From IMG/VR virus record IMGVR_UViG_3300020727_000006: 20,000 nucleotides of DNA, one strand, 5' to 3'. The notes beneath the pieces are model-generated. The model saw nothing but the letters and a program-made list of their open reading frames with translations. It had not been told where the DNA came from and did not search any database. Of this stretch, positions 2,172 to 20,000 are shown piece after piece. The stretch's first letter is position 1. Every line of letters begins with the position of its first letter. This stretch comes from an uncultured virus (IMG/VR IMGVR_UViG_3300020727_000006). Lineage: Duplodnaviria; Heunggongvirae; Uroviricota; Caudoviricetes. The position numbers and the translations under genes were made by a program.

Positions 2172-2398
2172 TGGCTAAAATGAGAGTACACGAGTTAGGA
2201 CCAACTCGCTGGCATATGAGTGTGTGGTTTAATAACGACGATGGCAGCGTAAATTGGGAGTTTAAGAAGTGGATGGCTGACAACTATCCAGATTGCCTTT
2301 GCATACACAGATTTAACAATGGCGAACCATATTGGGAATTGCGCGGCGGTGACCAAGCAGATCAAGCATTTATTGCTATGCGTTGGGGCGGCGAGTAA
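2171..2398 (+). CDS. Small hypothetical protein, 'F..RW' paralog family
   Basis: TAATG coupling to the upstream ORF. Ends WELRGGDQADQAFIAMRWGGE. Confidence 0.75.
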   Translation: MAKMRVHELGPTRWHMSVWFNNDDGSVNWEFKKWMADNYPDCLCIHRFNNGEPYWELRGGDQADQAFIAMRWGGE

Positions 2399-2401
2399 AT
2401 A
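2395..2401 (+). promoter_or_regulatory. Putative T4-late-like promoter (GTAAATA)
   Basis: GTAAATA-AAGTC-ATG, almost identical to the minus-strand context at 4270-4256 (GTAAATA-TTGTC-ATG). Confidence 0.5.
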
Positions 2402-2406
2402 AAGTC

Positions 2407-3540
2407 ATGAAAATATCAATGATCGGTTTAGGCAAACTTGGACTAGAAGCAGCCAATGTTATCAATAAAAGTTATCCTGTAATAGGATATGATATTAATA
2501 CCGTGGTAGCACCATTTCCAGTGGTCAATACCATAAAAGATGCTATAAAAAATAGTAAATTTATTTTCGTAGCGGTTCCTACACCGCACCATAGTGAGTA
2601 TAGTGGCAGCAATCCTACCAGTCACCTACCACCAAAAGATTTTGATTATACTATATTAAAAAATGTTTTAACAGAAATTGCAAAGCACCTTGAACCAGAA
2701 CAACAAGTTTGCGTAATATGCACTGTTATGCCAGGCACAACTCGCCGTGAATTGGCAACAATCATTCCTAATATTTTATATAATCCAACTGTAATTGCGC
2801 AAGGCACTGTTGCCAAAGATTTTGAAAATCCTGAGATTGTAATCGTAGGCGGTGAGTCAAACAATCCAAACCGCGCTAAACTAGCGCAATTCTATCGCAG
2901 TATTAATGGTGAAAGTGTTCATCTTGTTGAAGGTGAATGGGAAGATGCTGAACTTACAAAAATATTCTATAATACATTTTTAACTTATAAAATCACGCTT
3001 GCCAATACAATTCACGATATGGTTCAAAAACTTGGTCATGGGAATAGTGATATCGTGACCGATGGTTTAGCTAATTGCACCCGTAAGATAAGCGCACCAG
3101 CCTATATGACTGCTGGTATGGGCGTAGGTGGTCCTTGTCATCCTCGTGATATTATTGCAATGAATTGGTTTAGCCAAAGTATTAACCTTGGGTATGATTT
3201 ATTTGGAAATCTAAGCCAAATCCGTGAAATTCAAGCTAAAAACCTAGCTGATAAACTATCTAGTTATGGATTGCCAGTTGTAATATTAGGGCGCGGATTT
3301 AAAGAAAACCTTGCGCAGCATGATGGAAGTTATGCGCTGCTCGTTGGACATTATATAGATGGAGTTAGCTATCATGATCCACTCAATAACATTGAATATA
3401 GCGGCGATAACCCAGTTGTATATCTTGTAAGTTATCATCACGATTGGTTAAAGGATTATAACTTTATTCCTAATAGTATCATAATTGATCCTTGGCGTAA
3501 AAATTTATCAATACCAAATTGTAATGTTATTAACTTTTAG
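2407..3540 (+). CDS. ugd: UDP-glucose/GDP-mannose 6-dehydrogenase family protein
   Basis: Rossmann motif MKISMIGLGKLG, FVAVPTP, TVMPGTT, YNP, ELTKIFYNTFL and catalytic Cys in GGPCHPRD. Start moved to ATG 2407. Confidence 0.9.
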   Translation: MKISMIGLGKLGLEAANVINKSYPVIGYDINTVVAPFPVVNTIKDAIKNSKFIFVAVPTPHHSEYSGSNPTSHLPPKDFDYTILKNVLTEIAKHLEPEQQVCVICTVMPGTTRRELATIIPNILYNPTVIAQGTVAKDFENPEIVIVGGESNNPNRAKLAQFYRSINGESVHLVEGEWEDAELTKIFYNTFLTYKITLANTIHDMVQKLGHGNSDIVTDGLANCTRKISAPAYMTAGMGVGGPCHPRDIIAMNWFSQSINLGYDLFGNLSQIREIQAKNLADKLSSYGLPVVILGRGFKENLAQHDGSYALLVGHYIDGVSYHDPLNNIEYSGDNPVVYLVSYHHDWLKDYNFIPNSIIIDPWRKNLSIPNCNVINF

Positions 3541-4258
3541 GCATGAAGTTAGCAACTATATAATCAAATAGTTTACGAAAACCAACTCTGCTTGGTTCAC
3601 TATTTTTTGTAAAATTATTTACTATGTCATCTGATAAAAAATCGTGTAATGATTCAACTACTGGAATAAGATATTTGTAATTTTTCATAAGATTTAAATC
3701 TAATTTACCACCACCGCCTATACAATGAATAGGCATATAAATGCTGTTTAATTTGCTATATATTTCATCTAGTGGTTCATTGGTTTCTGATTGAAACCAA
3801 ATAGTCATTCTAGGTTCTGCATCCCAATCAATAGTATCAATTCTAGGAACTGATTTATTCCACCAAAAAAGATCATCTAACTCTTCATTGAGCCAGTCTT
3901 TCATAAATTCTTCTTTATCAGTATATTTAAAATATATTGGTTTTGTTCCACCATCTAATAAATGTCTTTGAACTTTTCTTCCATTGAAATAAAGCCATTG
4001 GGTATATCTAATTTCTCCCGTATCTGGATCACGCTCAAAAGGTATTGGAAAAGCTGCTCTGATAGCATTATAACTATCCAAATTTGTTGCATAGTATGAT
4101 GATATATTGTTTACGCTGCACCCAATGTTACGAAAGTACGCTTCTAATCCACGATGGGAAATGTTTTTCTCTTTTACTATTTTTTTTGTAACAGGGTCAA
4201 TTTTAGAATTTGCCCATTCACCAAGACCATACCTGTCGCCGCTTATTAATATATGCAT
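3530..4258 (-). CDS. Hypothetical protein with an SGNH-hydrolase-like N-terminus
   Basis: 242 aa. N-terminal ILISGDRYGLGEW resembles the GDS block, with R in place of the catalytic Ser. Convergent 3' overlap with ugd. Confidence 0.55.
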   Translation of the reverse strand: MHILISGDRYGLGEWANSKIDPVTKKIVKEKNISHRGLEAYFRNIGCSVNNISSYYATNLDSYNAIRAAFPIPFERDPDTGEIRYTQWLYFNGRKVQRHLLDGGTKPIYFKYTDKEEFMKDWLNEELDDLFWWNKSVPRIDTIDWDAEPRMTIWFQSETNEPLDEIYSKLNSIYMPIHCIGGGGKLDLNLMKNYKYLIPVVESLHDFLSDDIVNNFTKNSEPSRVGFRKLFDYIVANFMPKS

Positions 4259-4263
4259 GACAA

Positions 4264-4270
4264 TATTTAC
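4264..4270 (-). promoter_or_regulatory. Putative T4-late-like promoter (GTAAATA)
   Basis: Lies 5 nt upstream of the ATG at 4258, the same spacing as at 2395-2407. Confidence 0.5.
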
Positions 4271-4280
4271 AAAAAAGTAT

Positions 4281-4308
4281 TTGACATTTTTTAAAAATAT
4301 AGTATTAT
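4281..4308 (+). promoter_or_regulatory. Sigma70-type promoter
   Basis: TTGACA (4281-4286), 16-nt spacer, TATTAT (4303-4308). ATG at 4316. Confidence 0.65.
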
Positions 4309-4315
4309 TATTAAT

Positions 4316-4453
4316 ATGAAAGATAATCTAATAGAACGGATAGATGAATTGTTAAAAAGTCACGGACATCTGTCCGAATTTCGGCCATTTGTAAAGATTC
4401 TAATTGAAGTTCGAGAACAGCTAGCAAAAAAGAAAGAGAAATCACATGCCTAA
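4316..4453 (+). CDS. 45-aa hypothetical protein (not in the ORF track)
   Basis: MKDNLIERIDELLKSHGHLSEFRPFVKILIEVREQLAKKKEKSHA*. Directly follows a promoter and has an amphipathic-helix pattern. Confidence 0.6.
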   Translation: MKDNLIERIDELLKSHGHLSEFRPFVKILIEVREQLAKKKEKSHA

Positions 4454-4471
4454 TTGGTGTAAATAATTTAT

Positions 4472-4500
4472 TTGACAATGTTTATTTTTTATGATAGGAT
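4472..4500 (+). promoter_or_regulatory. Sigma70-type promoter with extended -10
   Basis: TTGACA (4472-4477), 17-nt spacer, TGnTAGGAT (-10 at 4495-4500). SD GGAGG at 4521-4525. Confidence 0.65.
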
Positions 4501-4530
4501 ACATAATCAATTTAAAAACAGGAGGTTACA

Positions 4531-5148
4531 ATTCCAAACTGGTGCTATAACAGTGCAAAGTTTACGCATAAAGACCCTGCAATGATTGCACGAGTTGCAA
4601 AGGGGTTTAATGAAGGAAAATTGTTTAGCGAATTTGATCCAACTCCGCCAGAATTGCTTGAGGGTGAGCCTGTTGGTGAGAATTATGTTGAGCGCAATGC
4701 AGCTCGTGAAAAAGAAAACGAAGAAAAATTTGGTTACAAAGATTGGTACCAATGGAATATTAACAATTGGGGAACCAAGTGGGATGCCAATACTGAGGAT
4801 CAAGACGCTGACTTGACTGATGGCGCTACTGAAATTTCTCTATCATTCGACACAGCGTGGGCACCACCAATCGAATGGTATCGCACAATGACCGATGAAT
4901 TTGATTTTGAAGTTGAAGCCTACTATAATGAAGAGGGCATGGCGTTCTGTGGAAAGTATACATCAGAAGTTGATGACGATTTTTATGAATACAGCGACAA
5001 AGATGCTGATTGGGTGCGAGAAAACATTCCGCTAGACATCGATGACCACTGGAGTATTTCTATGTTCCTAGAAGACATGGCAGAAGAAGAAGACGAATTT
5101 GGCATGGACGATGCCGAAGATAACGACAGCGAAGAAGAATCTGAATAA
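4531..5148 (+). CDS. DUF1281/YubB ferredoxin-like-fold phage protein with probable ATT start
   Basis: Motifs DWYQWNINNWGTKWD, FDTAWAPP and YYNEEGMAFCG. The family N-terminus (M)PNWCxN is in frame from ATT 4531, 5 nt after GGAGG. Confidence 0.8.
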   Translation: MPNWCYNSAKFTHKDPAMIARVAKGFNEGKLFSEFDPTPPELLEGEPVGENYVERNAAREKENEEKFGYKDWYQWNINNWGTKWDANTEDQDADLTDGATEISLSFDTAWAPPIEWYRTMTDEFDFEVEAYYNEEGMAFCGKYTSEVDDDFYEYSDKDADWVRENIPLDIDDHWSISMFLEDMAEEEDEFGMDDAEDNDSEEESE

Positions 5149-14839: not shown

Positions 14840-16063
14840 ATGGCAAATGTAACACTACTACACGGCGACTGCCGCGATCAACTCAAAACTCTACCTGACA
14901 ATAGCATTGACAGCATTGTAACTGATCCACCGTATGAACTTGGATTTATGGGTAAAAGTTGGGATGCCAGTGGCATCGCATATAATACGGATATGTGGCG
15001 TGAATGCTTGCGTGTACTAAAGCCAGGCGGACATATGCTTGCTTTTAGTGGTTCACGCACATATCATCGTATGACGGTTGCCATTGAAGATGCTGGTTTT
15101 GAAATTCGTGACCAAATTATGTGGGTGTATGGCACAGGGTTTCCAAAGAACCATGATGTTAGTAAAGCAATTGATGCCAAGATATTAACAGGCGGGTCAC
15201 ATAGTAAAAATATTAAATCTGCAATTGAACAGCGGCCTGGCGAAAGCAGAGAAACAGCAACTCTTCCAAATAATGGCGTTATGAGCGATGAACGCAAAGG
15301 TGGAATTACAAATGATAATCCCGCAACGCCAGAAGCGCAACAATGGAGCGGCTGGGGAACTGCACTTAAACCATCGCATGAACCAATTTGCGTAGCAAGA
15401 AAACCGTTGGGTGAAAAAACTGTTGCAGAAAATGTACTAAAGTATGGCACAGGTGCACTGAATATTGATGCTACTCGCGTTGAAGGCGAACCACCAAAAG
15501 CCATGATAGGAACTGGATGGGCAGCACAAGATAAGAAAAACGCAGAGCATGGCTTTCGTCCTAACGCATATTATACAGATCAAAATGGCGTAGAGTATGA
15601 ACCAAATGATCTTGGTCGTTGGCCAGCAAACTTTATTCATGATGGCAGCATAGAAACAGAATGGTCAAAGTTTTTCTATGGCGCAAAAGCAAGTCCACAA
15701 GATCGAAATGATGGTCTAGATGACTTTGAAGGTGGAAAAACAAATGACGGTCGCAAAGTAGATGCTAACAACGCTTATCAGCGCGGCGCAACTGTTAGAA
15801 AGAATACACATCCAACAGTAAAACCAACTGATTTAATGATTTACTTGTGCAAGATGGTAACACCGCCTAACGGGACTGTTCTTGATCCTTTTATGGGGTC
15901 GGGGTCAACTGGGCGAGGAGCAATCAATGGCGGGTTTAATTTTATTGGCATTGAGATGAGCCAAGAATATATTGATATTTCTCGTGCTCGTATTGCAATT
16001 GTTGAAAAAAGAGAAGAAGCTAAAATTAACACTGTGTTTAATAATTTATTTGAGGAAGAATAA
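14840..16063 (+). CDS. DNA N6-adenine/N4-cytosine methyltransferase, beta class
   Basis: Catalytic TDPPY near the N-terminus; HPTVKP and SAM-binding VLDPFMGSGST near the C-terminus. Confidence 0.95.
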   Translation: MANVTLLHGDCRDQLKTLPDNSIDSIVTDPPYELGFMGKSWDASGIAYNTDMWRECLRVLKPGGHMLAFSGSRTYHRMTVAIEDAGFEIRDQIMWVYGTGFPKNHDVSKAIDAKILTGGSHSKNIKSAIEQRPGESRETATLPNNGVMSDERKGGITNDNPATPEAQQWSGWGTALKPSHEPICVARKPLGEKTVAENVLKYGTGALNIDATRVEGEPPKAMIGTGWAAQDKKNAEHGFRPNAYYTDQNGVEYEPNDLGRWPANFIHDGSIETEWSKFFYGAKASPQDRNDGLDDFEGGKTNDGRKVDANNAYQRGATVRKNTHPTVKPTDLMIYLCKMVTPPNGTVLDPFMGSGSTGRGAINGGFNFIGIEMSQEYIDISRARIAIVEKREEAKINTVFNNLFEEE

Positions 16064-16329
16064 TGACCAAGCAGCTTGATAACAACTTGTTTGAAGAAGA
16101 GGAAACTCATACATTTAATCCACGAGATGAATGGAAAAACATGCCTGAATTTGTGCAAGAGAAACAAGAGCCATTTGCTAAGATCATTGTAAGATTTGAC
16201 AGTGCAGAGGCATTAGAAGAATTTAGTAAATTAATTGGACAAAAGCTTACGCCAAAAACAAAAAGCATTTGGCACCCTCAACTAGTTCGTGGTCTTAACG
16301 CAAGCAAGCGGTGGGTAGATGAATCCTAA
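16063..16329 (+). CDS. Small protein associated with the DNA-base glycosyltransferase
   Basis: Motif WKNMPEF.QE...IIVRF...IGQKLTPKTKSIWHP, which I recall next to GREB1/TAGT-like glycosyltransferases in phages; coupled on both sides. Confidence 0.65.
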   Translation: MTKQLDNNLFEEEETHTFNPRDEWKNMPEFVQEKQEPFAKIIVRFDSAEALEEFSKLIGQKLTPKTKSIWHPQLVRGLNASKRWVDES

Positions 16330-17179
16330 TCATCCAGTTTATATCGTGTCTAAAGGCAGATGGGAATCTAGGCTAACCAGTAAAGCACTGGAAGAAATCA
16401 ATGTGCCATATCATATTGTAGTTGAAGCAAGTGAATATGACAAATATGCCGCTGTCATTGATCCTAAAAAAATTCTTGTACTTGACCAAAAATACCTAGA
16501 TGAATATGATACATGCGATGACCTTGGAAGTACTAAGAGCAAAGGGCCTGGCGCTGCTAGAAACTTTGCATGGGAACATAGCATAAGCCAAGGCGCAACT
16601 AAACATTGGGTATTGGATGATAACTTTGATGCGTTTCATCGTTTTAATCGCAATGTTAAAGCAGAAGTTAAAAGCGGAACAATATTTAAAATTGCAGAAG
16701 ATTTTGTAGACAGATATGAAAATGTTCCAATAAGTGGATTTAACTATTATAGTTTCTGTAAAGCAACTGATGCAGTACCACCATTTGTATTGAACACTAG
16801 AATTTATTCTATTCTTCTTATACAAAACGATATACCATATCGTTGGCGTGGACGATACAATGAAGATACTGATCTATCATTGCGAGTATTAAAAGATGGG
16901 TTTTGTACTATCCAATTTAATACTTTCTTAGCTGGAAAAGTTACTACACAGCGGATGGCAGGTGGCAATACTGCTGACTTTTATAAACAAGAAGGCACGA
17001 TGGCAAAATCTCAGATGTTAGCTGATTTACATCCTGATGTTGCCAAAGTAGTATGGCGCTTTAATCGTTGGCACCACCATGTTGATTATCGTCCATTTAA
17101 AAATAACAAACTAATAAAAAAAGCAGGACTAGTAATTCCAGATCAAATTAATAATTATGGAATGAAGTTAGTGTCATAA
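16319..17179 (+). CDS. GREB1-like / TET-associated (TAGT) GT-A glycosyltransferase, probably DNA-base modifying
   Basis: Motifs VYIVSKGR, GPGAARNFAWEHS, HWVLDDN (DxD-like), NTRIYS, WRGRYNEDTDLSLRVLK and GGNT. Confidence 0.8.
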   Translation: MNPNHPVYIVSKGRWESRLTSKALEEINVPYHIVVEASEYDKYAAVIDPKKILVLDQKYLDEYDTCDDLGSTKSKGPGAARNFAWEHSISQGATKHWVLDDNFDAFHRFNRNVKAEVKSGTIFKIAEDFVDRYENVPISGFNYYSFCKATDAVPPFVLNTRIYSILLIQNDIPYRWRGRYNEDTDLSLRVLKDGFCTIQFNTFLAGKVTTQRMAGGNTADFYKQEGTMAKSQMLADLHPDVAKVVWRFNRWHHHVDYRPFKNNKLIKKAGLVIPDQINNYGMKLVS

Positions 17180-17233: not shown

Positions 17234-18163
17234 ATGCTAACTAGACTACTCACTGTTGCAGCAGCAACGATTATTGGTACAGCAGCGTATGCTGCTGAAA
17301 TTACAGGTGCAGGTGCTACCTTCCCATATCCAATTTATGCAAAATGGGCAGATGCTTATAAGAAGAGTTCAGGCAATACCTTAAACTATCAAGCAATCGG
17401 TAGTGGCGCAGGTATTAAACAGATTGAAGCTAAAACAGTTACATTTGGTGCTACTGATATTCCAGTAAAGCCAGAAGACCTTGAAAAGAAAGGTCAGGTA
17501 CAGTTCCCAATGATCGTTGGTGGTATTGTTCCAGTTGTAAATCTTAAAGAAGTTGCAAGTGGCAAGCTAGTTCTTTCAACTGACATCCTTGCCAAAATCT
17601 ATATGGAAAAGATCAAGCGTTGGAATGACAAGGAAATTGCAGCAATCAATCCTGGTGTCACATTACCAGACCTTCCAATCATCAAGATTCGTCGTAGTGA
17701 TGGTTCGGGAACAACTTGGAACTTCACTCGTTTCCTAGCAGAAGCAAATGCCGATTGGAAGAAGACATATAACTTTGGTCAATCAATTGAGTGGGTAGGC
17801 GGTGCTATTGGCGCTAATGGTAACGCTGGCGTTGCAGCAAATGTTCAGCAAACCAATGGTTCAATTGGTTATGTAGAATATGCTTATGCAAAGCAGAATG
17901 ATCTTACTGTTGCTAATATGATTGGTAGCGATGGCAAGTCAGTTGCTCCAAGCCTAAAGGCTTTCCAAACTACTTGGCCAATGGTTGCTACTTCTTATAT
18001 CGTAATGTATAAGGAACCAGGCGATAGTGATGCTTCAAAGGCTGCAATCAAGTTCTTTGAGTATGGTTTTGCCAATGATAAGATGGCAGAAGAACTAGAT
18101 TATGTTCCGTTAACTGCTGCTCAGAAGGCGGATGTAAAAAAAGTTTGGGCTAGCATAAAATAA
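17234..18163 (+). CDS. pstS: Phosphate ABC transporter substrate-binding protein PstS
   Basis: Signal peptide; ITGAGATFPYPIYAKWA, NYQAIGSGAG, FGATD, RRSDGSGTT and IGYVEYAYA; SD AAGGAG. Confidence 0.96.
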   Translation: MLTRLLTVAAATIIGTAAYAAEITGAGATFPYPIYAKWADAYKKSSGNTLNYQAIGSGAGIKQIEAKTVTFGATDIPVKPEDLEKKGQVQFPMIVGGIVPVVNLKEVASGKLVLSTDILAKIYMEKIKRWNDKEIAAINPGVTLPDLPIIKIRRSDGSGTTWNFTRFLAEANADWKKTYNFGQSIEWVGGAIGANGNAGVAANVQQTNGSIGYVEYAYAKQNDLTVANMIGSDGKSVAPSLKAFQTTWPMVATSYIVMYKEPGDSDASKAAIKFFEYGFANDKMAEELDYVPLTAAQKADVKKVWASIK

Positions 18164-18198
18164 CTCTTGACATATTAAGTCAATAGATGTATAAAGAG

Positions 18199-18231
18199 AA
18201 GGTGAGAGGGAAAACCCTTTCACCTTTTTTT
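18199..18231 (+). terminator. Intrinsic terminator after pstS
   Basis: 12-bp stem AAGGTGAGAGGG-AAAA-CCCTTTCACCTT (one G-U pair) followed by a T run. Confidence 0.85.
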
Positions 18232-18257: not shown

Positions 18258-18287
18258 TTGACAAATATTTTTTATCGTGTATAAATA
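18258..18287 (+). promoter_or_regulatory. Promoter of the leader/HNH/tRNA unit (sigma70-type, overlapping an exact TATAAATA)
   Basis: TTGACA (18258-18263), 16-nt spacer, TATAAA (18280-18285). TATAAATA at 18280-18287 equals the T4 late consensus. Confidence 0.75.
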
Positions 18288-18309
18288 GAACTACAAATTG
18301 AGAGCAAAC

Positions 18310-18396
18310 ATGACTAACACGCCTAAACATTATGATTATAACATTTGCCGCATGCCAGAAGGTTTCTGGATGGTGGGGGCGTGTGCCTTGATGTGA
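18310..18396 (+). CDS. Putative attenuator leader peptide, 28 aa (MTNTPKHYDYNICRMPEGFWMVGACALM)
   Basis: Lies just after the promoter with a weak SD (GAGAG, 18300-18304). Overlaps segments 1 and 2 of the alternative helices and stops 24 nt before the terminator stem. Confidence 0.6.
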   Translation: MTNTPKHYDYNICRMPEGFWMVGACALM

Positions 18397-18452
18397 TATG
18401 CACATCATAGTATGCACTTAGCCCCCGAAGCGAAAGTTTCGGGGGTTTTTTT
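18317..18452 (+). promoter_or_regulatory. Putative ribosome-dependent transcription attenuator
   Basis: 1:2 helix ACACGCC(18317-23)/GGCGTGT(18378-84). 2:3 helix GGGGGC(18375-80)/GCCCCC(18421-26), extended by GTGC/GCAC and TGATGTG/CACATCA. 3:4 is the terminator. Confidence 0.7.
18420..18452 (+). terminator. Intrinsic terminator (attenuator 3:4)
   Basis: AGCCCCCGAAGC-GAAA-GTTTCGGGGGTT, running into a T tract. Confidence 0.92.
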
Positions 18453-18552
18453 ATATCTACGGGACGCTACTCCCCACGCATAAGAGTAGCCCTTGACTAG
18501 TACTGGCTCCAAATGGACGCAGGTGGTTTCAGCAAGGCAAAATTTAATATTA

Positions 18553-18605: not shown

Positions 18606-18992
18606 ATGCCAAAAGGTTTCGTATCATCAACTGCGGGAAAAAATTATAATAAAATAATTGAGGCGGCTCAAAAAAGAGCATTTTCGGATGAAATTGTATT
18701 TGTTGAAAATTCATCACATCCAAGACATAGAGTAAAAGAAAGATTAATAAATCGCAATTTAATACCGCATTTATGCGAAGAATGTAATCAAGATTCTAAT
18801 TGGAATGGAAAAAAATTAGTTTTACAACTAGATCACATAAATGGTATTAACAATGACAACAGAATAGAAAATTTAAGATTTCTCTGTCCTAATTGTCATT
18901 CGCAGCAGGATACATATGCTGCAAAAAACAAATTAAATGAGGATAGAAAACCAAAGAAATATTACAAGTCTAAAAGAGCAGGAATAAGTTAA
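18606..18992 (+). CDS. HNH endonuclease, probably a free-standing homing endonuclease
   Basis: CEEC...LQLDHINGINNDNRIENLRFLCPNCHSQ. The last 15 nt overlap the tRNA. Confidence 0.92.
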   Translation: MPKGFVSSTAGKNYNKIIEAAQKRAFSDEIVFVENSSHPRHRVKERLINRNLIPHLCEECNQDSNWNGKKLVLQLDHINGINNDNRIENLRFLCPNCHSQQDTYAAKNKLNEDRKPKKYYKSKRAGIS

Positions 18993-19052
18993 TTGGCAAA
19001 CTATCAGTCTCCAAAACTGAAATTTCCAGATCGTTGCTGGATTCCTGTGCCA
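18978..19052 (+). tRNA. trnW: tRNA-Trp (anticodon CCA) with encoded 3' CCA
   Basis: Acceptor GCAGGAA/TTCCTGT, D-stem AGTT/AACT, anticodon arm TCAGT-CTCCAAA-ACTGA, T-arm TCCAG-ATCGTTG-CTGGA, discriminator G, then CCA. Confidence 0.92.
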
Positions 19053-19060
19053 TTTTTCTC

Positions 19061-19088
19061 TTGACAACCTTAAAAAACATGATATATT
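19061..19088 (+). promoter_or_regulatory. Sigma70-type promoter, probably leaderless
   Basis: TTGACA (19061-66), 16-nt spacer, TGnTATATT (-10 at 19083-88). ATG at 19095 is 6 nt downstream. Confidence 0.7.
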
Positions 19089-19094
19089 AGTAAT

Positions 19095-19331
19095 ATGGCT
19101 AGAGCATCAAAACCGCTTAACAAACCCGTTATTCCAGAGGATACCTGTCCTTATATTGACATGGTAATTGACCTTACTGAAAAGATGGCAAGTGATCCTA
19201 ACTATGATTGGCGTAATGAACAGCAAATACTTGTCAAAGCACTGCTAGAATATGTGCGTGAAAGCAACCAAAAACTGCGAATTTCATCCAAATTCTGGTA
19301 TGAACAGTACCAAAAAGTGTCAAAAAACTAA
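19095..19331 (+). CDS. Hypothetical protein
   Basis: 78 aa behind a promoter; motifs IPEDTCPYID and LEYVRESNQKLR. Confidence 0.75.
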   Translation: MARASKPLNKPVIPEDTCPYIDMVIDLTEKMASDPNYDWRNEQQILVKALLEYVRESNQKLRISSKFWYEQYQKVSKN

Positions 19332-19375
19332 GTTTTTGTGTCAAAATATTGGCAAACCTGTCAAAAAAATAACAC

Positions 19376-19403
19376 TTGACAACAATTTTAACTATGGTAT
19401 ATT
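19376..19403 (+). promoter_or_regulatory. Sigma70-type promoter, near-duplicate of 19061-19096
   Basis: TTGACA (19376-81), 16-nt spacer, TGnTATATT (-10 at 19398-403). SD AGGAG at 19421-25. Confidence 0.7.
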
Positions 19404-19432
19404 AGTAATATACCGCAGTTCAGGAGAATTAT

Positions 19433-20000
19433 ATGCGCAAGATTGCCCTATTTTCCCATCACCCACAATGCTCCCGTGACTCCACAAACGGCATTATTGC
19501 CGCCCTAAGTGGTGCTTACGATGTTGAGACCTTTCGAGTAGATGATGACTTTGGCGCTATTTTGGGCGAGGCTGACATCGTAGCCTTTCCTGGCGGTATC
19601 GGTGACAGTCAGTCATTTGACCATCTGCTTGGTGACAAGGTAGAGATGATCCAAGACTTCGTAACGCATGGTGGCAAGTATCTTGGTATCTGCATGGGTG
19701 CTTATTGGGCTGGTAGCCACTATTTCAACCTGCTTGATGGCGTAGACGCTGTTCAGTATATTCGCCGTCCACAGGCTTGCACGGCTCGTCCATATGGCAC
19801 TGTGGTAGAAGTAGATTGGTGTGGTGACAAGGAAGCCATGTACTTCTATGATGGTTGTGCATTGGTTGGTAACAAGCGTAAGTTTGAGACTGTTGCTACC
19901 TATGCTAACGGCGATGCTATGGCTATTCGCCAAGGCAATGTAGGTATCATCGGTTGCCATCCAGAGAGCCAAGAGTATTGGTTTGATACATGGCAATATA
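19433..20000 (+). CDS. Class I glutamine amidotransferase-like protein (BPL_N-like), cut by the window end
   Basis: Read manually, not in the ORF track: MRKIALFSHHPQCS...IVAFPGGIGD...GGKYLGICMGAYWAG...IIGCHPES. The Cys nucleophile elbow and HPE motif are present. Confidence 0.85.
   Translation, partial: MRKIALFSHHPQCSRDSTNGIIAALSGAYDVETFRVDDDFGAILGEADIVAFPGGIGDSQSFDHLLGDKVEMIQDFVTHGGKYLGICMGAYWAGSHYFNLLDGVDAVQYIRRPQACTARPYGTVVEVDWCGDKEAMYFYDGCALVGNKRKFETVATYANGDAMAIRQGNVGIIGCHPESQEYWFDTWQY

Follow-up and report, generated by a model that had tools for sequence, protein, structure and literature searches.

The described systems closest to the element reported here are regulatory leaders. In the attenuators of the amino-acid operons (trp, his, phe, leu, thr and ilv), a short promoter-proximal open reading frame (ORF) precedes an intrinsic terminator, an antiterminator makes use of the 5′ arm of that terminator, and the position of the ribosome picks between competing helices of similar strength. 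The pyrBI leader of Escherichia coli is an attenuator which reads general ribosome progress and not one amino acid, T-box RNAs bind one specific uncharged tRNA directly and have no leader peptide, and the put element of phage HK022 is a cis-acting processive antitermination RNA. The bmrB-bmrCD leader has been described as an antibiotic-responsive attenuator reading ribosome progress (PMC4191407), and the trpL attenuator of Sinorhizobium as the source of a trans-acting RNA, rnTrpL, and a peptide, peTrpL (PMC7298713, PMC7968998). The present analysis concerns a leader ORF at positions 18310-18396 of a stretch of 20,000 nucleotides (nt), here called the window, from an uncultured virus of the Caudoviricetes (IMG/VR record IMGVR_UViG_3300020727_000006). 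The leader is followed by a terminator, by a structured RNA designated RNA X, and by an island of tRNA genes. The control of phage tRNA gene expression is essentially undescribed. A search of literature full text, outside the coverage of which lie subscription journals and older work on phages T4 and T5, returned neither an attenuator or leader peptide ahead of phage tRNA genes nor a leader in which the use of all amino acids was remarked upon.

The element is very probably a translation-coupled attenuator. That its leader gauges the global supply of tRNA and translation, and in this way controls transcription of RNA X and of the tRNA island, is given an even chance. The ORF, its competing helices, its synteny and the diversity of its codons are each supported by comparison among related sequences. 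The parts of the element in the window are the following.

18258..18286, plus strand: leader promoter, with a consensus -35 hexamer (18258-18263), a 17-nt spacer ending in TG and a -10 hexamer (18281-18286)
18300-18304, plus strand: purine-rich, Shine-Dalgarno-like stretch upstream of the leader ORF
18310..18396, plus strand: leader ORF, with ATG at 18310-18312, 28 sense codons and TGA at 18394-18396
18317..18324, plus strand: region 1 (codons 3-5), which can pair with 18377-18384 as an anti-antiterminator in the minimum-free-energy (MFE) fold
18355..18369, plus strand: mid-ORF hairpin of 6 bp with a 3-nt loop, holding the single Trp codon
18375..18388, plus strand: region 2, the last sense codons, forming the predicted 5′ strand of the antiterminator in folds of partial transcripts
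18389..18407, plus strand: small stop-codon hairpin, enclosed by the antiterminator
18409..18426, plus strand: region 3, which pairs with region 2 or, from 18421 on, with region 4 as the terminator
18420..18452, plus strand: intrinsic terminator, with a 12-bp stem (18420-18447), a 4-nt loop and seven T (18446-18452)
18455..18542, plus strand: RNA X, about 88 nt, starting 7 nt after the terminator; covariance-model match of 87.9 bits

In the proposed mechanism, transcription would start at the strong promoter at 18258-18286. In the nascent RNA, 18375-18388 would pair with 18409-18426, and this antiterminator would tie up six bases at the start of the terminator's 5′ arm. A ribosome arriving in time at the end of the leader would cover or melt the pairing, upon which the terminator at 18420-18452 would form and the transcript would end. 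A ribosome delayed earlier in the leader would leave the antiterminator intact, the polymerase would enter RNA X at 18455-18542, and read-through would continue into the tRNA genes where nothing intervenes, giving a demand-driven boost of tRNA-island transcription. Because the leader uses nearly every amino acid, the delay is proposed to report the general supply of charged tRNA and not that of one amino acid.

Relatives of the module were found in IMG/VR and in lake-metagenome contigs. Lineage A, to which the window belongs, comprises about 20 contigs with 12, later 15, distinct module versions, detected by BLAST and two pattern scans; the pattern-scan matches L088 and L102 (chance) and L084 (truncated) were excluded. 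The core of RNA X, used as a pattern in IMG/VR and the metagenome collection, yielded many more loci, and the distant lineages were thus found blind to the content of their peptides. The total came to 36 plus 13 distinct module versions, sorted into lineages A, A′, B, C, D, E, E2 and F and four further lines. No module was present in the cultured-phage records of INPHARED. The -35 and -10 hexamers of the leader promoter were invariant in eight aligned relatives; a promoter pattern scan had missed this promoter, its -10 rule being unmet when the hexamer was read at 18280-18285.

Duplex energies of the alternative helices were -14.8 kcal/mol for pairing of regions 1 and 2, -21.5 for regions 2 and 3 and -22.4 for regions 3 and 4. 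When nascent transcripts were folded, i.e. partial transcripts ending before the 3′ arm of the terminator, 18375-18380 paired with 18421-18426 and 18383-18388 with 18409-18417, around the stop hairpin. This antiterminator was the nascent-transcript MFE structure with the modelled ribosome at codons 5-15; once the ribosome had been placed at codon 20 or on the stop codon, it no longer formed. At equilibrium, the terminator formed in the full transcript at every modelled ribosome position; because attenuation is kinetic, such full-length folding is uninformative. In the ribosome-free MFE fold of the window, codons 3-5 can pair with region 2, and this pairing is retained, with one G-U pair, in a relative whose following codons have all changed. 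The 167-nt RNA starting at about 18290 showed a folding energy of -58.1 kcal/mol (z=-5.0), which was reached by none of 200 shuffles, and the terminator is almost invariant among relatives. The stem of the mid-ORF hairpin is kept and its loop altered in L011 and L094, and an equivalent hairpin is found in other lineages; it is possibly a site of polymerase pausing. The only Rfam matches of the window at gathering level were to tRNA. The leader and cis-regulatory families of Rfam (His_leader, PyrR site, trpB motif, L20 leader and others) gave best scores of 21.6-22.9 bits against thresholds of 49-59.

The same arrangement was predicted in all 12 representatives of lineages A-F: the codons at the end of the ORF pair with the 5′ arm of the terminator around a small hairpin located at or after the stop codon, and a ribosome at the stop codon abolishes this pairing in each. 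Complementarity between the ORF end and the terminator arm exceeded that of shuffles in 11 of the 12 (P<=0.041), the value for lineage D being 0.073. Covariation was examined on an unfitted MAFFT alignment of 12 leaders from a sister group (the E group). The antiterminator, with 13 pairs, was 86.5% paired and seven of its pairs had changed on both sides; its score was 0.473, compared with 0.247 for shuffles (0 of 500 as high) and at most 0.128 for slid controls. The terminator, with five pairs, was 100% paired, three pairs had changed on both sides, and the score was 0.491 against 0.217 (again 0 of 500). One column of the shared strand covaried with both of its alternative partners. At the level of aligned sequences, this is direct comparative evidence for a two-state switch, the 5′ strand of which would be the end of a translated ORF. 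For the lineage of the window the same design is predicted without covariation support, because its sequence hardly varies. The earlier sequence-only reading of the window had regarded the ORF as the leader of an attenuator-type RNA switch, and the layout, the competing folds and the E-group covariation bear this out.

The ORF is kept in 34 of 34 non-truncated module versions and in 13 of 14 further loci, L268 alone lacking a leader. No homologue was found that retains the helices and has lost the frame; every leader homologue has kept it. All leaders start with ATG and comprise 24-50 codons, and the distance from the stop codon to the run of T of the terminator is 49-61 nt in every module version. 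An ORF placed in this way occurred in only 3-6% of shuffles per lineage. Insertions and deletions respect the frame: L156 carries an in-frame insertion of +3, indels of +4 and -1 in L011 restore the frame, and in L011, L094 and L112 the entire first half of the ORF has been rewritten. In lineage A, a 1-nt indel that shifts the stop by two codons is accompanied by a compensatory change from G-C to A-U in the stop hairpin. Thirteen bases of region 2, third codon positions included, are invariant among 12 variants, next to two hypervariable codons upstream, which therefore points to constraint on the RNA. Between lineages the leaders show a mean column identity of 27%, conservation being limited to Met1, one Pro and nearly one Trp, as compared with 77% identity for RNA X. 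An overlapping ATG ORF of 19-24 codons (18332-18391, frame +2 of the leader) is probably fortuitous, since not all members of lineage A have it.

The diversity of the leader peptide had been the central point of the sequence-only reading, and both the coordinates and the peptide were confirmed: 18 of the 20 amino acids occur in the 28 codons, S and Q being absent, and 15 different residues are found in the first 20 codons. The repetition of one residue that marks classical leaders is indeed missing; except for Met, no residue is used more than twice, and there is no run of codons for a single amino acid. The probability of at least 18 distinct residues in 28 was 0.015 given the composition of the 15 long ORFs of the window, and 0.023 among 4715 real 28-residue windows of those proteins. 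Of the 34 ATG ORFs with 24-30 codons in the six frames, the leader was the only one to reach 18 (mode 14). The count in the first 20 codons, taken alone, was ordinary (P=0.064). Within the window, the diversity is thus a modest oddity noticed post hoc, and it is its recurrence in relatives that decides.

Lineage A contains 14 distinct leaders (the L138 row, which is the end of pstS, was left out) with 15-18 residues in 26-28 codons, and seven of the 14 were significant at P<0.05; the property is thus kept to a moderate degree only. The numbers of distinct residues in the other lineages were:

Lineage B: 18-19 distinct residues in 25 codons
Lineage C: 15 in 27 codons (ordinary)
Lineage D: 18 in 24 codons
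Lineages E and E2: 18-20 in 34-35 codons
Lineage F: 20 in 48 codons and 20 in 50 codons
Further lines: 17-19 in 27-32 codons

All 38 distinct leaders lay above their expected diversity (mean z +2.13), 22 of them at P<0.05. Six manually defined lineages, that of the window excluded, were each represented by their least diverse leader, for which Fisher's test gave a combined P=3e-5; codon-uniform odds gave 6e-5 and flat odds 4e-3. Rare residues were present in nearly all representatives (Cys 9/9, Trp 9/9, His 8/9), and the mid-ORF hairpin explains the presence of Trp in part. The claim that the diversity is conserved has accordingly stood up, as it recurs across leaders that can barely be aligned and is specific to the translated frame. 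The part of the leader in which a stall would matter was defined as the codons before the ribosome touches region 2, in the window about the first 17. This part was diverse (P=0.004-0.04) in E, E2, F and one of two B representatives (L147), with counts among them of 14/16, 17-18 of 25-27 and 20 of 38-42. Comparison of the early leader with the tRNA set encoded by the same phage gave agreement in G002 (15/17, P=0.013) and G006 (15/16, P=0.017); the tRNA sets of fragment records are incomplete.

The fold predicted for RNA X combines an H-type pseudoknot with a 7-bp stem and a long, bulged hairpin, the internal loop of which is highly conserved. In an alignment of 29 distinct sequences, 92.5% of cells were paired and 12 of 22 pairs had changed on both sides; the covariation score was 0.503, compared with 0.171 for shuffles (0 of 500 as high) and 0.05-0.13 for slid controls. 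The pseudoknot helix had not been part of the model used for alignment. No match to Rfam was obtained at E<=0.1-10 with RNA X of the window, of L008 or of six other loci. Further copies were located in L040 (5860-5950), L170 (314-404), L172 (320-410) and about 45 more loci, and each tRNA island carries RNA X once. On the evidence of aligned sequences, it is a new structured RNA, supported by covariation, that marks the start of tRNA islands. Judged by its position, it may be a processing signal, an antitermination RNA or the 5′ leader of a tRNA precursor. The run of T of the terminator is separated from RNA X by 4-12 nt in lineages A, B, C, D and F, and because this gap is so short RNA X would there be made only by read-through. 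In L082, L083 and L085, which form one branch of lineage A, a 52-codon ORF with a strong Shine-Dalgarno sequence lies between terminator and RNA X, about 17-180 nt after the run of T; this ORF could be expressed only through read-through.

The module and RNA X were found at the 5′ edge of a tRNA array, on the same strand, in 10 of 10 larger records examined, which covered the six lineages A-F and included G002, G003, G004, G005, G006, G007, G009 and G010. The numbers of tRNA genes were 19 in G002, 15 in the island of G003, 22 in G006, 18 in G009, 11 in G010 and 6 in G007, and tRNAs downstream of the module were also seen within short loci of lineages B, C, D and F and in L277. The window reaches the first tRNA gene of its island, and in the near relative G002 another 18 tRNA genes follow tRNA-Trp on the same strand.

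18606..18992, plus strand: HNH homing-endonuclease ORF, between RNA X and tRNA-Trp, with Pfam and PHROGs matches
18978..19052, plus strand: tRNA-Trp (CCA), first tRNA of the island, called by ARAGORN and matching Rfam tRNA with 48.1 bits

The last 15 bases of the HNH ORF overlap the tRNA-Trp gene. At the site of the HNH gene, relatives have either no insertion, a GIY-YIG-like ORF or a winged-helix-like ORF of 93-113 residues; this site of the tRNA island is a hot spot for mobile endonucleases. In L008 the interval from RNA X to tRNA-Trp (4225-4620) contains tRNA-like pieces flanked by a repeated hairpin, among them an ARAGORN call at 4343-4414 with an undetermined two-base anticodon and a T-arm-like stretch near 4567; these could represent decayed tRNAs or signals for processing. 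Beyond tRNA-Trp, a near-consensus promoter at 19061-19088 drives a conserved ORF of 78 residues and an ORF resembling class-I glutamine amidotransferases (19061-19999); every lineage-A relative has retained both ORFs, behind tRNA-Trp and in front of the main tRNA block. A special tie between the leader and tRNA-Trp was considered and rejected, since the first tRNA differs between lineages: it is Trp only in A, Glu/Lys or Asn/Trp in B and Ser/Tyr in E. In addition, a ribosome at the Trp codon would already cover region 2.

RNA X is the one product that always lies downstream of the leader. The tRNA genes are probably reached by read-through in some lineages and served by extra promoters in others. 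A two-part feedback controller is conceivable on this basis, and is put forward tentatively: the all-amino-acid leader would meter the pool of charged tRNA, any shortage (by host shut-off, starvation or tRNA-cutting nucleases) would open the attenuator into RNA X, and RNA X would act on the transcription complex or on the precursor so that the tRNA array is expressed.

Several observations weigh against the reading of the element as an attenuator that gauges tRNA supply for the island. Read-through as the route to RNA X and the tRNA genes is not uniform. In E/E2 and their relatives, a good promoter-like site lies between terminator and RNA X. In L268, where RNA X is found near 640-730, a protein gene and a promoter-like site are located upstream and there is no leader ORF or terminator; RNA X is therefore able to occur in the absence of the attenuator. 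Some members of lineage A carry, between RNA X and the next genes, a hairpin resembling a terminator and then a new promoter; in these phages read-through may yield RNA X alone. The HNH gene separates RNA X from tRNA-Trp in the window, and small ORFs and mobile endonuclease genes are inserted at various points across the loci. As regards the switch, pairing of regions 1 and 2 was better than in shuffles in only 4 of 12 representatives, with P=0.30 in the lineage of the window. The variable sites of lineage B are biased to third codon positions (2, 4 and 14 at the first, second and third), and nine codons vary only synonymously, which fits either a conserved choice of tRNA at each codon or a functional peptide.

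As regards diversity, lineage C is ordinary (P=0.45), also in its stall-sensitive part (13/19). This part likewise is not unusually diverse in A and D, and in the window it has 12 distinct residues (P=0.45). Enrichment of the early leader for the phage's own tRNA set was inconsistent, being absent from G003 (12/17), G009 and G010. The lineages are not fully independent, because their sequences are related by descent, and automatic clustering at 45% identity left three clusters with a Fisher P of 2e-3. Because the peptides are short, this clustering over-merges A, B, C, D and F, and the merging is regarded as an artefact. The direction of control, the signal that would be read and selection of the diversity for sensing are inferred.

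The attenuator may also be real and its diversity have no role in sensing, so that it would sense only whether the leader is translated; this is considered unlikely. The element would then be, for example, a timing device at host translation shut-down, or plainly a leaky terminator, and the diversity a by-product of packing RNA helices into the ORF. Conserved residues do coincide with helix bases, e.g. the Trp codon in the mid-ORF hairpin, and the ordinary stall-sensitive part of the window would be expected. The five other frames of the same DNA were also somewhat diverse (mean z +0.26 to +1.25), but the translated frame exceeded them by about 1.4-2.3 z units, with a mean z of +2.61 and 10 of 11 at +1.5 or above. 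As the other frames are lower, the heterogeneity of bases imposed by the RNA therefore explains a minor part of the diversity. A by-product of helix packing is also difficult to reconcile with a diversity greater than that of the flat 20-letter model, as in the Fisher test above, and with the diverse region upstream of region 2 in E, F and L147.

Somewhat less probable still is that the unit, with its promoter and terminator, is a micro-protein gene in its own right, possibly of dual function in the manner of rhizobial trpL; the peptide or the short terminated RNA would act in trans, perhaps together with RNA X. Such a gene would account for the purifying selection seen in lineage B, for the presence of Cys, Trp, Lys and Pro in 9 of 9 representatives, and for the promoter-like site of E-group RNA X, by which the leader unit stands alone; trans-acting leader peptides have been described (PMC7298713). 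The peptides, however, are barely alignable across lineages and vary from 24 to 50 residues, and in searches of Pfam and NCBIfam no family scored above its curated cut-off with 11 leader peptides from all lineages. In lineage E the variable sites are distributed evenly over the codon positions (10, 11 and 10), and the covariation between ORF end and terminator arm, which indicates a role of the RNA in cis, would be left unexplained.

The sequence-only reading had further proposed that the early codons are picked for tRNAs cut by anticodon nucleases, the leader serving as the sensor of a counter-defence. This is now very unlikely. In the window, 8 of codons 2-16 belong to the Lys/His/Tyr/Asp/Asn/Arg set (P=0.056) and six to the His/Tyr/Asp/Asn set (P=0.084), and changes at these codons in lineage A are mostly synonymous or stay within the set. 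The Lys/His/Tyr/Asp/Asn block proved, however, to be specific to the lineage of the window. It is lost in L112, the nearest diverged relative, and is not enriched in B, C, D, E and F; 9 of 11 other representatives have the background number of 3-5 of 15 for the larger set, and the remaining two have 7 and 8. A leader using 18 of 20 amino acids also holds these residues by necessity. A link to queuosine was looked for and gained no support, as homologues of Tgt and QueC were found neither in G003 nor in G006. On the minus strand of G003, positions 280587-281174 encode an RNA ligase similar to T4 Rnl1 (PF09511, 100 bits), the kind of enzyme that has been described to repair nuclease-cut tRNA (PMC10264068); an Rnl2-type ligase was not found in G003. 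Phage tRNA genes have been presented as compensating for codon mismatch and for a decaying host tRNA pool, and as a response to tRNA-cutting immunity, and tRNA-cutting defences with phage tRNAs as counter-measures are well documented in the same source (PMC10264068). Depletion of tRNA is therefore a plausible signal. Of the proposed depletion sensor, the general part has held, since the leader heads a tRNA array and this fits tRNA or translation supply; the part that named particular nucleases has not, as nothing ties the leader to them. A non-coding small RNA with a fortuitous ORF would suit the strong fold and the greater conservation of the 3′ half over the 5′ half, bases after the stop codon included, but can hardly be credited given the ORF of the same placement in every lineage, the in-frame indels and the third-position bias of lineage B.

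The window is a portion of a large phage genome, that of a giant freshwater phage. Its nearest record is a 14.9-kb fragment, and among the relatives G003 is a complete genome of 338 kb with terminal repeats. Profile searches identified genes for a DNA methylase, a TET-associated glycosyltransferase, a UDP-glucose dehydrogenase, a phosphoesterase and PstS, the last of these directly ahead of the leader unit.

17234-18163: pstS, phosphate-binding protein PstS
18194-18231: pstS terminator, preceding the leader promoter

A second promoter-like pair of hexamers lies directly 3′ of the pstS stop codon, in the region 18166-18231, and its -10 element shares bases with the pstS terminator hairpin, in the 5′ arm of the latter; this arrangement is kept in L008 (3935-3999). 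The UDP-glucose dehydrogenase (2383-3540), the DNA methylase (14840-16063) and the TET-associated glycosyltransferase (16319-17179) suggest hypermodified phage DNA of the glycosylated hydroxymethyl-pyrimidine type. Naming of a host from PstS was attempted and abandoned, the nearest bacterial PstS proteins being alphaproteobacterial with 47-54% identity, which is too distant.

Whatever the mechanism, the analysis has defined the new structured RNA X and a module family with about 50 copies in lake metagenomes. The two-part controller, if real, would be the first attenuator known to sense tRNA supply globally and would provide the first regulatory logic described for viral tRNA islands. If the leader does gauge tRNA supply, it would represent a new sensor design derived from a known mechanism, in which diversity of codons replaces their repetition, and a compact, portable reporter part for global translation capacity. 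The time at which, and the reason why, phages switch on their tRNA genes would become directly testable.

With the attenuators of amino-acid operons, the phage element shares the promoter-proximal short ORF, the intrinsic terminator, the antiterminator that uses the terminator 5′ arm, competing helices of similar strength and, by prediction, the choice of helix by ribosome position. It differs from them in that its leader has 15-20 amino acids in 24-50 codons and no codon run, in that a structured RNA and tRNA genes lie downstream and not biosynthetic enzymes, and in being encoded by a phage. The helix between regions 1 and 2 is weakly supported in the phage, and the score for the His_leader family of Rfam was 21.6 bits against a threshold of 49. 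T-box elements resemble it as terminator/antiterminator switches which act in cis, report tRNA charging and regulate genes for translation supply; no T-box match was listed in the Rfam scan at E<=10, and in the phage element the ribosome would do the reading and all tRNAs would be sampled. The case of Sinorhizobium trpL, which has no sequence similarity to the phage leader, raises the possibility that the terminated leader RNA and its peptide could have functions of their own, and bears on the lineages in which RNA X has a promoter-like site. RNA X itself resembles put of HK022 in being a compact, two-domain RNA at the 5′ end of a long, hairpin-rich phage transcription unit. This likeness is a lead only; RNA X has an H-type pseudoknot, and no put-like family of Rfam was matched.

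The phage element is closest in logic to the attenuators that read general ribosome progress, i.e. the pyrBI and bmrB-bmrCD leaders. These also have no codon run, their output follows the distance between ribosome and polymerase, and slowed translation leads to read-through, as is proposed here. No attenuator of this type is known from a phage or ahead of tRNA genes, and the full-text search returned none. Those two leaders control nucleotide synthesis or drug efflux, and neither has been reported with a leader selected for diversity, whereas in the phage a leader of diverse codons would be coupled to RNA X and the tRNA island.

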